Both the position numbers and the translations under genes were made by a program. Below are positions 1 through 5,495 of a stretch of 28,453 nt of DNA, piece after piece; the first letter of the stretch is position 1, and every line of letters starts with the position of its first letter. The notes beneath the pieces are model-generated. The model saw nothing but the letters and a program-made list of their open reading frames with translations, did no database searches and was not told the DNA's origin. Source of the DNA: a virus; UHGV virus genome UHGV-0259231, one strand, 5' to 3'.

Positions 1-569
1 GTCGATCCCCTGACAAGGAAATGTGAACCATGGACATCAACGCGTCATAAATGTTTACGCAAGTGCACAATGCACCCTTTCCACTATCAACAAGGAGGAG
101 CAGAAACTGTGTAAATCGTACAATGGTAAGACTTATCAAAAATACAGGTTAATTTTGGTATTTAAACCTTTTTTACTTGTTAGTATGATACAAAGGCTTT
201 CAAAAAAGCTGGGAAATTCAACAACTCTTGGAAATTATGGACTTTGTCCCGCGGCTTTAATCTGACGGCCGCGTTCCTTTTTTGACTCAATTATTGACCC
301 CTTCTCTACGCAACTTCAGTTCCCACCACCAACTTTGCGGCAGTTTCATAGGATGAATGTCTAAAAGAATAATGGTGACCGATAAGAAAACGACTGAATA
401 ACTGCACATTTTCGCTCGAAAGCTTCCTGTCAGATCCATAGCGGATCAAGTGCTGAATGTCACAGTATCGAACAGAAAACAGTGACGATCTAACCCTTCA
501 AGAATATTCTACGATTGTTCTGTTTAGGAAAAGCAAGGCGGGAAGTCAGGAGATAAGTCATTGATAAAG

Positions 570-631
570 TGGCGGAGAGAGGGGGATTTGAACCCCCGGT
601 AGAGTTGCCCCTACTCCGGTTTTCGAGACCG
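570..631 (-). other. attR core: 3'-terminal 62 nt of a tRNA-Ser(CGA) gene (serU-like), lacking the 5' half
   Basis: Minus-strand reading gives CGGTCTCGAAAACCGGAGTAGGGGCAACTCTACCGGGGGTTCAAATCCCCCTCTCTCCGCCA: anticodon loop with CGA, long class-II variable arm, T-arm and CCA end. The sequence expected for the D-arm and 5' acceptor is absent after position 631. Confidence 0.7.
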
Positions 632-847
632 ATGATACAGAGTCGAAAAATCAAAGAGTTAAAAACTTTTCTTGGAATAAATGTCTTAAAATCGTACACG
701 AAAAATCAATAAATTACATAACATTAAAGAAGAATATTCCAAGCCTTCTTGAGGCCACCACCTGTTTTCAGGTGTCATTCAGACGTGATTTACCCCAGAT
801 TGGGTAAGCACGCTTTTTTTCTCAGCTTATTCCGTTTTGCCTGTGTG

Positions 848-875
848 TTGAATAATTCCACTGCAGTTATATAAA
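848..875 (+). promoter_or_regulatory. Candidate sigma70 promoter on the plus strand (TTGAAT, 16-bp spacer, TATAAA)
   Basis: Hexamers at 848-853 and 870-875. The region is AT-rich, so a chance match is possible. Confidence 0.2.
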
Positions 876-929
876 ATCGGTAACGGCTGGAAATCATTCA
901 ATACTCGCACTATCGAAAGTTAACCAGCC

Positions 930-970
930 AGCCGCAGTATCCTATCATGACAAGTTACTGCGGCTTTTTA
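930..970 (+). terminator. Plus-strand intrinsic terminator (10-bp stem AGCCGCAGTA/TACTGCGGCT, 16-nt loop, T-run)
   Basis: Perfect inverted repeat 930-939 / 956-965 followed by TTTTTACTTTTTATATTT on the plus strand. It is convergent with the minus-strand gene that ends at 981. Confidence 0.4.
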
Positions 971-980
971 CTTTTTATAT

Positions 981-1268
981 TTAACGGATCAACATCCAGA
1001 TCAGCAGACACGCCACCACCGGCACAGCAAAATCCATCAGGCTTGCCACATCCCACACGCGCGGATCAAAACCGCCCCACCACGGCATGTTAATCCTCTT
1101 GCCATGCCCAAACATTTCAATCCAGCGATATTCTGCCTGGGTGTGTTCACGCGCAATGAAGAACGTACAACCGGCTATCGCCCCGTAAGCCCAGTTCCCG
1201 GTAAAAAGACCAATCAGTAGCTGCGCAGCCACAGCACAAAGCGCATGAAGGAAAGGTGTTATATCCAT
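981..1268 (-). CDS. Small hydrophobic (multi-pass membrane) protein of unknown function, about 95 aa
   Basis: ORF with ATG at 1268 (alternative ATG at 1274; the ORF-track start at 1283 is TTG). An AGGA Shine-Dalgarno lies about 6 nt upstream. The translation has two to three hydrophobic stretches. Confidence 0.5.
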   Translation of the reverse strand: MDITPFLHALCAVAAQLLIGLFTGNWAYGAIAGCTFFIAREHTQAEYRWIEMFGHGKRINMPWWGGFDPRVWDVASLMDFAVPVVACLLIWMLIR

Positions 1269-1280
1269 TTTCATCCTACC

Positions 1281-1304
1281 CAATAAAACGGGGCGCTCGG
1301 CCCC
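1281..1304 (-). terminator. Intrinsic terminator downstream of the distal fibre gene
   Basis: GGGGC/GCCCC stem with a 5-nt loop, followed on the minus strand by GTTTTATT. Confidence 0.45.
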
Positions 1305-1310
1305 TTGATA

Positions 1311-2351
1311 TTATTTAGACGCAAGCGCCGCCTCAATTGCAGATAATCTTTGTCTTAATTCTGCGTTTTCTTCTTCCAGTGCTGTTATTCTGTCGTCTGA
1401 CTCTCTGGCTACCTGAACAAGCAAGCCAGTAACACCAGAATAATCTACTGTGTAATAACGTTCACCTTCTTCACCTTCCGATCCGCTTGCACCGTCCTGA
1501 TATTTCATTGCGGAACCTACAACTTCTGGGATTGCTTCCAGAGCTTCCTGTGCAATGACACCAGCATAGGGCATACCGTTTTCTTTAAGCGTGTATGTAT
1601 AGCCGTTCATTTTACGGATGCGGTCGGTTGCATTATCGATCACCTGAATGTTGTCTTTCAGATCCCGGTCGGAATGCTGGTTAAATGCGGTGGCATGACA
1701 TGCACCATTAACGCTTAACATATAGGTGTTATCGGTATTTTTCTGCGCATAGAACATATAAGCGCCACCATCAGCACCAACTTCATATACAACCGGACGG
1801 GTAGAGTTACCCCACAAACTAGTAGTAGCGCCAGAATGAGCGGTTCCCTGTGTGTTGATTGTCATGGTTGACCCATGATTGGCATATTTGATTTGTAATG
1901 TGTCTGTGCAGTCAAACTTAATAAGCGCGTTACTTCCCCGCACACCATACGACATGAGACAGTTCCCCATCTTAAGGTAACCATCACTGCCTGGAAAAAT
2001 TAATGTTCCACCGTAAAGATCGCTAAAATCCCAAAAGATACCTTTTGTTCCATTGTGTGTGACAATCCTTGTCATTGTATCTTTTGTACCGTCAATATTT
2101 TTTCTAGTGTACATCTCACTATAAGCGTTTTCGGTTTCTCCTGTCTTATTTGACAAGTGAATCTTACCGCTAAATATAGTTCCAGTGGTCGGCAATGTCT
2201 TTTGATCATAGATTACATTGCAATAACTATTCCATGTTGTTTTATTGTCTACATATGATTTTGTTGCGTAGCTTCCTTGATCGTTTTTTAATTTGCTAAC
2301 GTCGGATTTTAGCGTTTTGATGTCTTCAGGAATTACTGTCGATGTAGCCAT
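1311..2351 (-). CDS. Tail fibre / receptor-binding protein with C-terminal intramolecular chaperone (peptidase S74-type) domain
   Basis: The C-terminal 110 aa (SDRDLKDNIQVI ... GVIAQEALEAIPEVV ... YYTVDYSGVTGLLVQVARE ... coiled coil) fit the auto-cleaving chaperone domain of endosialidase/L-shaped tail fibres. The N-terminal 230 aa are Ser/Thr/Gly/Asn-rich and beta-rich, and the DNA is visibly AT-rich. GGAAG Shine-Dalgarno upstream. Confidence 0.6.
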   Translation of the reverse strand: MATSTVIPEDIKTLKSDVSKLKNDQGSYATKSYVDNKTTWNSYCNVIYDQKTLPTTGTIFSGKIHLSNKTGETENAYSEMYTRKNIDGTKDTMTRIVTHNGTKGIFWDFSDLYGGTLIFPGSDGYLKMGNCLMSYGVRGSNALIKFDCTDTLQIKYANHGSTMTINTQGTAHSGATTSLWGNSTRPVVYEVGADGGAYMFYAQKNTDNTYMLSVNGACHATAFNQHSDRDLKDNIQVIDNATDRIRKMNGYTYTLKENGMPYAGVIAQEALEAIPEVVGSAMKYQDGASGSEGEEGERYYTVDYSGVTGLLVQVARESDDRITALEEENAELRQRLSAIEAALASK

Positions 2352-2360
2352 TTTTCTTCC

Positions 2361-2642
2361 TCACATCCAGCCACGAAGTTGATGCTCAACAGCAACCACG
2401 TATTCATCGAATATTGACGATTTTTTTGCATCATTAATGATGCGCACGTTTACAAAATATCCGTCTTCCTTAACACATACCGGCTCGCCATCTTCGGTAA
2501 GTTCTCCGGTTTCTTTGTACACGTTACCTATCACGTCAATAAGAATATCATCCTGCATCGACTCGTCATCATAATAGCCGGCACTCTCCATAAAGGCCGA
2601 AAAGTCGGCCCTGTCGGCAAATTTGAGTGTTAAATCTTTCAT
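2361..2642 (-). CDS. Acidic 93-aa hypothetical protein, translationally coupled to stf (possible fibre assembly factor)
   Basis: Its ATG at 2642 shares one nucleotide with the Stf stop codon (TAATG), and it sits 9 nt upstream of the next fibre gene. No family recognised. Confidence 0.5.
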   Translation of the reverse strand: MKDLTLKFADRADFSAFMESAGYYDDESMQDDILIDVIGNVYKETGELTEDGEPVCVKEDGYFVNVRIINDAKKSSIFDEYVVAVEHQLRGWM

Positions 2643-4831
2643 TAGATTGACTCCCCCACCTGAGCATCAGTCAATGCCTTGTGCCATATTCTGAAATTCC
2701 TGACATGACCAAATAAATGACGCAACCCGGCTGTAGTCTGGCCTCCAATACGGATAATTGCGGTGTTCTGAATATAGGACCATGTGGCTTTCTTTTCGCT
2801 GGATATACGCCCGTTACTTACTGAGCACGTAGACTGATCTGACTTTACACGCATCCCCATAACCATTTTTTCAAGCGATGCGTTTTCGTTTACCCGTCTG
2901 TTAGCCAAACCTATATCGCAATAAGGAAATCCGTCGTAATCTGTTGAACGACCGAAGCCAAGAATAATAGCCGCTCCGGTTTGATGACCGCCGGTATCAA
3001 AAACACGCGGTGCTGCATTTGGCGTTTTATACCAGTTCTTATGTACCTCACAAAGAACTGTAAAAGGAAGATTATAAAGGTTATTCTTGATTGGGACTGT
3101 CACCATATCGCTTGCGCGAGTGCTTGCAATTATATCAGTTACAATAAATGACGAAGCACTTGATCCACCTTCCACTTGTGGAGTTGCGATATCCAGATAG
3201 TCTCCAGATGCTGTGCCTGAACCTTTTACTGGAGCATATTGAACCATCGCACCAATCATGCTCTCTGTATCTAGTGCATTAATTGTAGCCTGATAGAAAA
3301 TCCAACCAGTAGCCTCATCTTTTACAGCCTTTGCAATAATACGATTTGCTGCACCACCAGTCTTATCAATTACAAGTGTTGATAAATTGAGGTAAGCATC
3401 TCCCAAAAAAGTGTAAGTAGAACCATCATGATGTTCAAATCTTAAACGACACCTTATATTTTCAACATCACTTCTGACACGGCATGAAATGGTCACATAT
3501 TTTTCATCACCTGTGACATCAAATCCTTTACTGCCAGAAACCGTTACGATATTAATCGCACTTGTCTGATCAATAAGAGTATCTTTTACAGTAAATCTCC
3601 CATAAGTAAAATTAAAAGAATCCGTGGATATTTCTGTGAGTTCCAGATTGCCTGACTTATTCCATTTAGATGGATTTGTTGAATTAAGCAGAAGATTAGT
3701 TCTTTGCCCCTCAATAAGCAGGCCATCACGTTCAAATCGCGGCTCGTCAATGGCAGCCTCTGTCAGTACACCAGATTTATTAATATAGGTTGCTTTCGAT
3801 GCGCGTTTAAACTTAACAACCTTGTCACCAGGCATCGTTATTTCGTCGTCGCCAATAACAATCTTTTTATATGATGGCGAAAAGCCCGTAATCATATCCA
3901 GTGAATCGTTAAACGGTATCCACACATCGGGAAGCGGCTGCAAAACTTGTTTATACGGCTCCGCAGCCTGGCTTGCATACTCTCTGGCTGCGTCTTCACT
4001 TGCTTTTGCAGCCGTCTGGCTTGCAGCGGATGCTTTCGCCGAGTTAGCCGCCGCAGTCTCGCTCGCCTTTGCGTTGGTTTCACTGGTTTTTGCAGCTTTT
4101 TGACTGTTGGCTGATGCAGTGGCAGAAGAAGCCGCCGCACTTGCAGAACCAGCTGCGGCACTCTCGCTTTGGGCTGCAGCATCCTGACTGTTTTTCGCCG
4201 CAGTTTCACTGGCTTTGGCATTCGTTTCGCTGGTCTTCGCTGCCGTCTGGCTGGACTTTGCGTTGGTTTCGCTCGTCTTTGCGGCTGTCTCGCTGTTTTT
4301 CGCGTTGGTTTCTGATTTTTTGGCTGCTGTCGCGGAGTTTGCCGATGCAGTCTGTGAGGTCGCTGCCGCCTGTGCGCTGTTAGCTGCATTCGTTTCTGAG
4401 GTTTTCGCCGCGTTCTTCGATGATGCCGCTGCAGTTTCGGATTTCTTTGCCGCCGCTGCGCTCTGAGAGGCGGCTTCGGCGTTGCGTGCCGCTTCTTCCA
4501 CCATTGCCTCAAAACGACGCAATGCCTCCGGCATGACATCATCTTCCGTCATGGCACCGAGAAAATCATTCAGCGTACCTGGTCTGGAACCTTCATAGAC
4601 GGTAATGGTCCCGGCATGTGAAGGCGGAAAACCTTCAACCAGCAGGGTGACGCTGTACTGGCCATACTCAACATCCATGCTGTAACGTCCGGCTTCATCC
4701 GGATTTTCAGAAGCCACCGTGTTCACCAGTACCGTGGTGCTGTTACGCTTTGCCTTCAGTTGAATAGTGCAGTTCTGTATTGGTTTTCCCGCACCATCTT
4801 TCAGCACACCTGAGATTTTTACTGCTGCCAT
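2642..4831 (-). CDS. stf: Side tail fibre protein Stf (lambda-like N-terminus, Ala/Ser-rich repeats, distinct C-terminal receptor-binding domain)
   Basis: The N-terminal 110 aa (MAAVKISGVLKDGAGKPIQNCTIQLKAKRNSTT...) are near-identical to lambda Stf as remembered. A central AAKTSETNAK-type repeat region follows. The C-terminal 430 aa are unrelated to lambda and end in a ...RNFRIWHKALTDAQV motif resembling LamG/ConA-like jelly-roll domains. ATG at 4831 has a GGAG Shine-Dalgarno; the ORF-track start at 4837 is GTG. Confidence 0.8.
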   Translation of the reverse strand: MAAVKISGVLKDGAGKPIQNCTIQLKAKRNSTTVLVNTVASENPDEAGRYSMDVEYGQYSVTLLVEGFPPSHAGTITVYEGSRPGTLNDFLGAMTEDDVMPEALRRFEAMVEEAARNAEAASQSAAAAKKSETAAASSKNAAKTSETNAANSAQAAATSQTASANSATAAKKSETNAKNSETAAKTSETNAKSSQTAAKTSETNAKASETAAKNSQDAAAQSESAAAGSASAAASSATASANSQKAAKTSETNAKASETAAANSAKASAASQTAAKASEDAAREYASQAAEPYKQVLQPLPDVWIPFNDSLDMITGFSPSYKKIVIGDDEITMPGDKVVKFKRASKATYINKSGVLTEAAIDEPRFERDGLLIEGQRTNLLLNSTNPSKWNKSGNLELTEISTDSFNFTYGRFTVKDTLIDQTSAINIVTVSGSKGFDVTGDEKYVTISCRVRSDVENIRCRLRFEHHDGSTYTFLGDAYLNLSTLVIDKTGGAANRIIAKAVKDEATGWIFYQATINALDTESMIGAMVQYAPVKGSGTASGDYLDIATPQVEGGSSASSFIVTDIIASTRASDMVTVPIKNNLYNLPFTVLCEVHKNWYKTPNAAPRVFDTGGHQTGAAIILGFGRSTDYDGFPYCDIGLANRRVNENASLEKMVMGMRVKSDQSTCSVSNGRISSEKKATWSYIQNTAIIRIGGQTTAGLRHLFGHVRNFRIWHKALTDAQVGESI
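3982..4480 (-). repeat. Coding tandem repeat array (about 33-nt units encoding AAKTSETNAKxS motifs) inside stf
   Basis: Repeated GCnnnnAAAACCAGCGAAACnAAnGC-like units are visible on the coding strand. They generate the overlapping alternative-frame ORFs at 3822-4542. Confidence 0.7.
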
Positions 4832-4840
4832 ATCCACTCC

Positions 4841-4869
4841 ACAAAAAAGCCCGCCTGAACCGGCGGGCT
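4841..4869 (-). terminator. Intrinsic terminator downstream of lom
   Basis: 8-bp stem AGCCCGCC/GGCGGGCT with a 6-nt loop, followed on the minus strand by TTTTTTGT. It lies just upstream of the stf Shine-Dalgarno. Confidence 0.6.
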
Positions 4870-4895
4870 GTCATAACACTGTGTTACCTGGCTAA

Positions 4896-5495
4896 TCAGA
4901 ATTTATAACCGACACCCACGATGAAACCGTCAGTGCGCCAGTCACCACTGCCGGAGCCTTCATAAGCAATATCAATGGCCACGGATTCGGTCGGGTTAAA
5001 CTGCACGCCAGCTCCCCACGCCAGAGACGTGTTGCTGTGGCGACCGTCATCACTTCCGGTCAGCACATCGTGCGTTTTCCCCTTGTTGTCAGTTACGCGG
5101 AGATAATCCCCGGAGAACGTCGAAACACGGCTGTAAGCCACACCTGCCATCGCATAAGCACTGAACCATTCATTCACGCGTACAGATGGCCCCGCCATCA
5201 TGCTGAACCAGCGGTTACGCACTGAATCTTCATGCCAGCGGGTATCGCTGTAATGCGTTTTTTGCTCATCTTTGGCATTGGCATAACTGAATGACGTCAC
5301 CAGCCCCAGCGTGTCCGTAAATTCATAACGGTATTTCACGTTAATGCCCTTCAGGTCATCACTGCCTGGCATATCAGTATGGGTCTGAAGATACCCGGCG
5401 CTTAGTGTGGACTGATGCTCTGCTGCGCTCGCTGGCGTACCAGCGGCAACCAGCCAGACTACTGCGGACAGAATAACAGCACATAATTTACGCAT
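4896..5495 (-). CDS. lom: Lom outer-membrane protein (Ail/Lom family) with signal peptide
   Basis: Translation is near-identical to lambda Lom as remembered (…STLSAGY…GINVKYRYEFTDTLGLVTSFSY … ends GFIVGVGYKF). N-terminal signal peptide present. Confidence 0.9.
   Translation of the reverse strand: MRKLCAVILSAVVWLVAAGTPASAAEHQSTLSAGYLQTHTDMPGSDDLKGINVKYRYEFTDTLGLVTSFSYANAKDEQKTHYSDTRWHEDSVRNRWFSMMAGPSVRVNEWFSAYAMAGVAYSRVSTFSGDYLRVTDNKGKTHDVLTGSDDGRHSNTSLAWGAGVQFNPTESVAIDIAYEGSGSGDWRTDGFIVGVGYKF

Follow-up and report, generated by a model that had tools for sequence, protein, structure and literature searches.

The tRNA fragment at positions 570-631 of the window (the whole 28,453-nt stretch of viral DNA analysed here) and its flanks almost certainly represent the attR site (P-O-B') of a lambdoid prophage that integrated into the Escherichia coli serU gene through tyrosine-integrase site-specific recombination. 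The original prediction, made from the sequence alone, had proposed a prophage-host junction formed by integration into a tRNA gene, and this was borne out, as the attB, attP, attL and attR configurations were all identified. The label attR was also correct by the lambda convention, this being the tail/J end of the prophage, opposite int. As a junction it is a standard attR, at a hotspot that is already documented; the additions made here are limited to a motif map of the P arm and to the use of alleles to place the strand exchange in the anticodon stem-loop.

The truncated serU gene and its intact counterpart

On the plus strand, window positions 570-631 read TGGCGGAGAGAGGGGGATTTGAACCCCCGGTAGAGTTGCCCCTACTCCGGTTTTCGAGACCG. 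The reverse complement was aligned to the 90-nt tRNA-Ser(CGA) encoded by serU of E. coli K-12 MG1655 and matched its positions 29-90 at 62 of 62 nucleotides; identity to serU ended at 632, where the window carries a T and the tRNA a C (C28). As had been predicted, the minus strand at 570-631 thus holds the 3' 62 nt of a serU-like tRNA-Ser, from the anticodon stem-loop through CCA, and the 5' part of the tRNA, comprising 28 nt with the 5' strand of the acceptor stem and the D arm, is missing. In the predicted serU cloverleaf the anticodon stem is formed by positions 28-32 and 40-44 and the loop by positions 33-39. The fragment starts at position 29, the second base of the 5' strand of this stem, and ends with CCA. 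Of the two ends proposed for it, the CCA end stood, whereas the start had been placed at the anticodon loop and actually lies one base into the 5' strand of the anticodon stem.

The 62-nt string was present as a single copy in the 28.4-kb window, and none of 100 shuffled sequences matched it when three mismatches were permitted. ARAGORN did not call a tRNA at 570-631 (four phage-borne tRNAs were called elsewhere in the window, at 25778-26087) and Rfam gave only sub-threshold tRNA-like matches at the fragment, both of which are expected for a truncated gene. The sub-threshold Rfam matches (Plastid-psbl-rps4, tmRNA T-arm and sX4) were dismissed as echoes of the tRNA fragment. An open reading frame of 69 aa at 490-699 (minus strand) overlaps both the fragment and host intergenic DNA and was taken as spurious.

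Positions 1-569 of the window are host DNA from the yodB-serU intergenic region and form the B' arm of attR, collinear with positions 1400-1968 of the K-12 reference segment (L003). Collinearity with the K-12 yodB-serU region extended over window 1-631, with five SNPs in the 569-nt flank, and broke off at 632. Since K-12 continues past the equivalent of 632 into the 5' 28 nt of serU and then into mtfA, it represents the empty attB. A comparison with an uninfected allele had been suggested, and in K-12 MG1655 yodB-serU-mtfA was indeed found uninterrupted, with both flanks adjacent. Over window 1-1400, SMS-3-5, XDL and several more complete E. coli genomes showed 100% identity, and yodB is annotated directly upstream in SMS-3-5 and XDL, ending just left of window position 1.

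The other end of the prophage, with attL and int, is absent from the window and was therefore read in the near-identical relatives SMS-3-5 and XDL; the best complete genome for a 25-kb query showed about 98% identity. In both genomes an intact 90-nt tRNA-Ser(CGA) is located approximately 42.4 kb from the fragment, about 14 kb past the right edge of the window, and contains a second copy of the 62-nt sequence that is identical to the fragment at 60 of 62 positions. It is neighboured by genes for a tyrosine integrase, a DUF4224 excisionase and an exonuclease VIII-type protein, with mtfA and asnT on the opposite side. The integrase (341 aa) matched PF00589 and phrog_1, and the DUF4224 protein matched the excisionase family phrog_1266. 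The predictions that an intact tRNA and an integrase gene lie beyond the right edge of the window, and that a second copy of the core is attached to an intact tRNA-Ser beside an integrase gene, were thus both confirmed in these two relatives.

In the PGAP annotation the integrase gene is flagged as frameshifted in SMS-3-5 (L002 18527-19577) as well as in XDL (L011 41547-42597). However, a prophage locked in by an inactivated integrase was rejected, because the open reading frame consists of 341 uninterrupted codons, as in the attP contigs. It differs by 1 nt from int of the phage record ON470583 and is 99-100% identical to int of the three attP-bearing IMG/VR contigs described below. The flag seems to trace to a longer reference model. 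Read by eye, the integrase sequence contains HDLK, compared with HxxR in lambda Int.

The attP site and the interval of strand exchange

For the identification of attP, a synthetic site was assembled by joining the SMS-3-5 arm on the int side to the core and to the window from 632 onward. Searched against the phage collection, it found no deposited phage with the full junction. ON470583 and ON470580 were rejected as attP carriers, being prophage cut-outs with host mtfA and asnT, and mEp332, ev099 and PhiR70_1 were rejected as they carry a fossil attR with host flank instead. IMG/VR was then scanned for an exact pattern of 83 nt across both junctions in which two polymorphic positions were left open. 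Three independent contigs (L008, L009 and L010) matched, and in each of them the int arm, the 62-nt block and the arm that starts at window 632 are joined. In L009 the order is tail-fibre genes, window-type P arm, core, and int, xis and exo, with 95-98% identity to the window over 554-5069; this is the excised or free-phage arrangement.

The 62-nt copies at attR and attL differ at two positions, window 601 (A versus G) and window 612 (T versus C). The A/T alleles are found in attB of K-12 and in attR of the window, and the G/C alleles in attL of SMS-3-5 and in all three attP contigs. Window 601 corresponds to position 59 of the tRNA and window 612 to position 48; in the predicted cloverleaf these two form a base pair of the variable-arm stem. 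On this folding model the phage allele is a compensatory change from A48:U59 to G48:C59, with which the tRNA should stay foldable.

As attR carries the host alleles at 601 and 612, and attP and attL carry the phage alleles, 570-612 (minus strand; alleles A601 and T612, tRNA U59 and A48) is derived from the host and the exchange took place within 613-631 (minus strand), an interval delimited by the allele at 612 and by the end of the attP/attB identity at 631. It corresponds to tRNA positions 29-47 and contains the anticodon loop (33-39) between the inverted strands of the anticodon stem. Within 613-631 we infer a 7-bp overlap. The boundary between host and phage lies between 613 and 632, with 632 as the first phage-only base.

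These results specify two statements of the original prediction. A prophage end at about 632 and a host flank at 1-569 were both correct, with the refinement that host DNA also covers at least 570-612 and that the boundary falls between 613 and 632. The 62 nt were correctly taken as the att core in so far as they are the duplicated block of identity between attP and attB, but they are not the mechanistic core, exchange being confined to 613-631. Williams reportedly described, in 2002, an anticodon-loop class of tRNA-gene integration sites in which exchange occurs at the loop flanked by the inverted stem strands. The site studied here resembles this class, as the identity block begins in the anticodon stem and reaches the 3' terminus of the tRNA, and the exchange is confined to positions 29-47, which include the loop.

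Integration proceeded from a phage attP that bears a copy of the 3' 62 nt of serU, with exchange within the anticodon stem-loop. A complete tRNA gene was rebuilt at the int end (attL) from the 5' part of the host gene and the 3' part of the phage copy with G48:C59. The original 3' part of the host gene (A48:U59), severed from its promoter and its 5' half, was left as a dead fragment beside yodB at the tail-fibre end. By analogy with lambda, the 196-nt phage arm that adjoins this fragment probably holds accessory sites for excision (arm-type Int and IHF sites) and a terminator for int transcripts.

Organisation of the phage arm and the prophage interior

The phage P arm of attR (632-827, plus strand) is a conserved module of 196 nt that is joined to the core and the int side in L008, L009 and L010. 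Its outer edge is defined by the end of similarity to L010, mEp332 and ev099, which stops at 827 in these unrelated carriers. The 9-nt motif CTTGGAATA occurs twice in the 28.4-kb window, both times in the P arm, compared with an expectation of 0.17 (local expectation 0.016). Its plus-strand copy at 671-679 (P1) and its inverted copy at 735-743 on the minus strand (P2, inverted repeat I1) are candidate arm-type integrase sites; P2 is mutated in the fossil copy of mEp332. In the P' arm the 8-nt core of the motif, CTTGGAAT, is present in three tandem copies (CTTGGAATT, then CTTGGAATA twice) across the int stop codon. The copies of the arm motif are conserved in all attP contigs.

Two perfect matches to the IHF consensus WATCAANNNNTTR were detected on the plus strand of the P arm, AATCAAAGAGTTA at 649-661, which is part of the direct repeat D1, and AATCAATAAATTA at 704-716, whereas 0.03 matches are expected within 632-827. 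The whole window contains four matches versus 0.96 expected, and three of the four are located within 554-716, the third of these being in the host arm at 554-566. By analogy with lambda, we infer that the P-arm motifs are candidate arm-type Int and IHF sites.

Past the CCA end of the tRNA, the P' arm of the phage still resembles the B' arm of the host (TAAGTGATTGA versus TAAGTCATTGA; window 553-569 versus L002 18500-18517), so that the similarity of attP and attB reaches, imperfectly, about 15 nt beyond the tRNA. In this stretch the host sequence fits the IHF consensus perfectly, and the phage sequence departs from it at one position.

Further along the P arm, two hairpins (759-774 and 789-808) are followed by a T-run on the plus strand (759-820 in total), with a terminator-like match at 789-808. 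The fold of 745-830 was more stable than that of shuffled sequences (z = -3.2). In the attP configuration, transcripts of int would read the strand that bears the hairpins and the T-run; the end of the conserved module follows closely after the T-run. By comparison with lambda, 759-820 is a possible int terminator in a position like that of tI/sib.

The arrangement resembles attR (P-O-B') of lambda in several respects: a tyrosine integrase and an excisionase are encoded, attR is located at the tail/J end, short motifs recur in both the P and the P' arm, there are IHF-consensus sites, and across attP, downstream of int, a hairpin is followed by a T-run. Lambda differs in its target, which lies between gal and bio, has a core of 15 bp and is not a tRNA gene, and the sequences of the arm sites are unrelated. 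The roles of Int, IHF and RNase III are experimentally established for lambda; those suggested for the serU prophage are drawn by analogy.

The att module is separated from the last prophage gene by a variable non-coding spacer (828-980, plus strand), which is not conserved in L010, mEp332 and ev099. It contains a GC-rich hairpin of 10 bp at 930-965 (inverted repeat I2) followed by a T-run to 975 on the plus strand (fold z = -4.4). The last open reading frame before attR is located at 981-1283 on the minus strand (100 aa in the list of open reading frames, 95 aa as annotated) and matched phrog_1443 (E = 8.5e-58); the product had no Pfam match and is annotated as a hypothetical protein in SMS-3-5. 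This gene occupies the usual position of a moron, and many lambdoid and Stx phages whose att sites differ carry it at 99-100% DNA identity.

From 632 onward the window reads as a lambdoid prophage from its tail end, with the small open reading frame, tail-fibre genes, Lom, J, tape measure and head genes, followed by terminase, lysis genes, a tRNA cluster, Q and RusA. The four phage-borne tRNAs (25778-26087, minus strand), located between the Q antiterminator and the holin, are Gly-TCC, Thr-TGT, Lys-TTT and a tRNA with the anticodon CAT (Met according to ARAGORN, Ile according to RefSeq). Subsets of this cluster vary among the relatives, and XDL is without the Lys tRNA. The tail-fibre open reading frame of 731 aa (2642-4837, minus strand) is intact here, whereas the copy in SMS-3-5 (L001 14751-18356) is split by an IS3-family element. 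No stx, LT-II or effector genes were seen in the window.

A fossil of the same attR was observed in the genomes of free lambdoid phages, namely mEp332 (L004 2051-2585), ev099 (L005 2239-2773) and PhiR70_1 (H45). It combines three parts: 278 nt from between E. coli yodB and serU, corresponding to window 292-569; the serU fragment of 62 nt, bearing the A/T alleles of the host; and the P arm of 196 nt. It is bordered by tail-fibre genes on one side and, on the other, by an AraC-like regulator, fragments of IS elements and another integrase. The fossil looks like host DNA captured by imprecise excision from serU, by analogy with the lambda bio transducing phages. In the mEp332 copy one arm-type motif has decayed.

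The serU hotspot and the history of the junction

Several prophages are already known from this site. Sp14 of O157 Sakai occupies serU, with yodB on one side and tRNA-Ser(cga) on the other (PMC8190617); after mitomycin C treatment, PCR revealed its circular form (PMC2669165). A Stx1d prophage has serU and yodB as its borders (PMC9729726), strains of O145:H28 carry serU prophages, with prophage replacements at serU (PMC7067040), and serU is among the listed integration sites of Stx phages (PMC8065619). SE11 has a serU prophage with a duplication of 77 nt (PMC2608844), compared with the block of 62 nt here. In the GenBank record KU052038 ('phage SerU-LTIIb') the annotation lists a pseudo tRNA-Ser beside yodB that is the same 62-nt piece. 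The prophage of the window thus shares with Sp14/CP-933U of O157:H7, the Stx1d prophage of O121:H7, SerU-LTIIb and PP_SE11-6 the chromosomal arrangement yodB, prophage, serU-mtfA, and these other serU prophages differ from it in their cargo (stx, LT-II, effectors).

Among 5426 complete E. coli genomes, the complete 200-nt attR junction was present in 881 and the complete 200-nt attL junction in 1155, O157:H7 included. The pattern of matches expected for an empty site, judged from identity and coverage, was seen in about 3800 of the 5426. For this count a 200-nt attB junction query was uninformative, since attL alone covers 81% of it. In O157:H7 (Sp14/CP-933U) the 200-nt attL, comprising intact serU and the 3' end of int, was 100% identical to the SMS-3-5 query, whereas the attR query was matched only to position 103-106 of 200, that is 3-6 nt beyond the core, where another phage arm begins. 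As attL is shared but the P arm is not, the window carries a Sp14-type integration module and not Sp14 itself. Judging from these sequences, the same integration module combines with other P arms, as in O157:H7.

This modularity of the att arms is also what would be expected if the junction had been inherited from an earlier serU prophage and the present interior had been swapped in by homologous recombination between lambdoid phages. The unequal counts of attL and attR junctions (1155 versus 881) and the replacements on record for serU prophages (PMC7067040) point in the same direction. However, in L009 the same tail-fibre genes, P arm, core and int are joined as attP at 95-98% identity, and the P arm therefore travels with this type of phage. 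We consider such an inherited junction unlikely, and it would alter only the history of the junction and not its identity as attR.

Far less probable is the mirror-image reading of the duplicated core, in which the fragment would have come with the phage and the intact serU at the far end would be host DNA throughout. No specific support for it was found, and the alleles contradict it: the fragment has the host alleles (A601, T612) and adjoins the yodB flank, whereas the intact copy has the attP alleles and adjoins int. A tRNA pseudogene from a deletion or rearrangement unrelated to phage, or a chance resemblance, would fit the lack of a tRNA call by ARAGORN and Rfam at the fragment, but it is the least credible of all in view of the 62/62 identity with zero chance matches expected, the precise break at a phage arm which directly adjoins the core in the attP contigs, and the complete set of attB, attP, attL and attR.

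The identification of 570-631 and its flanks as attR has direct consequences for annotation. The boundary of the prophage is fixed (exchange within 613-631, 632 as first phage-only base), its locus is serU between yodB and mtfA, and the positions of the integrase and the functional tRNA can be predicted from the junction. With the two-allele marker, the sequence alone suffices to place the crossover in the anticodon stem-loop with unusual clarity. As the serU hotspot carries virulence prophages (Sp14 with effectors, Stx1d, LT-IIb), recognition of the junction also aids prophage typing.

Lysogeny at serU would swap the A48:U59 of the host for the G48:C59 of the phage, and about a fifth of E. 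coli genomes would be affected. The long variable arm is a feature that seryl-tRNA synthetase recognises, so this change could subtly alter the function of the tRNA. It is a speculative and rather doubtful proposal, taken as a whole, that lysogeny at serU acts as a lysogenic conversion that alters a tRNA and that the hairpin and T-run of the P arm act as a sib-like retroregulator of int. If true, the retroregulator would switch int expression according to the state of integration, and both readings would extend known principles.
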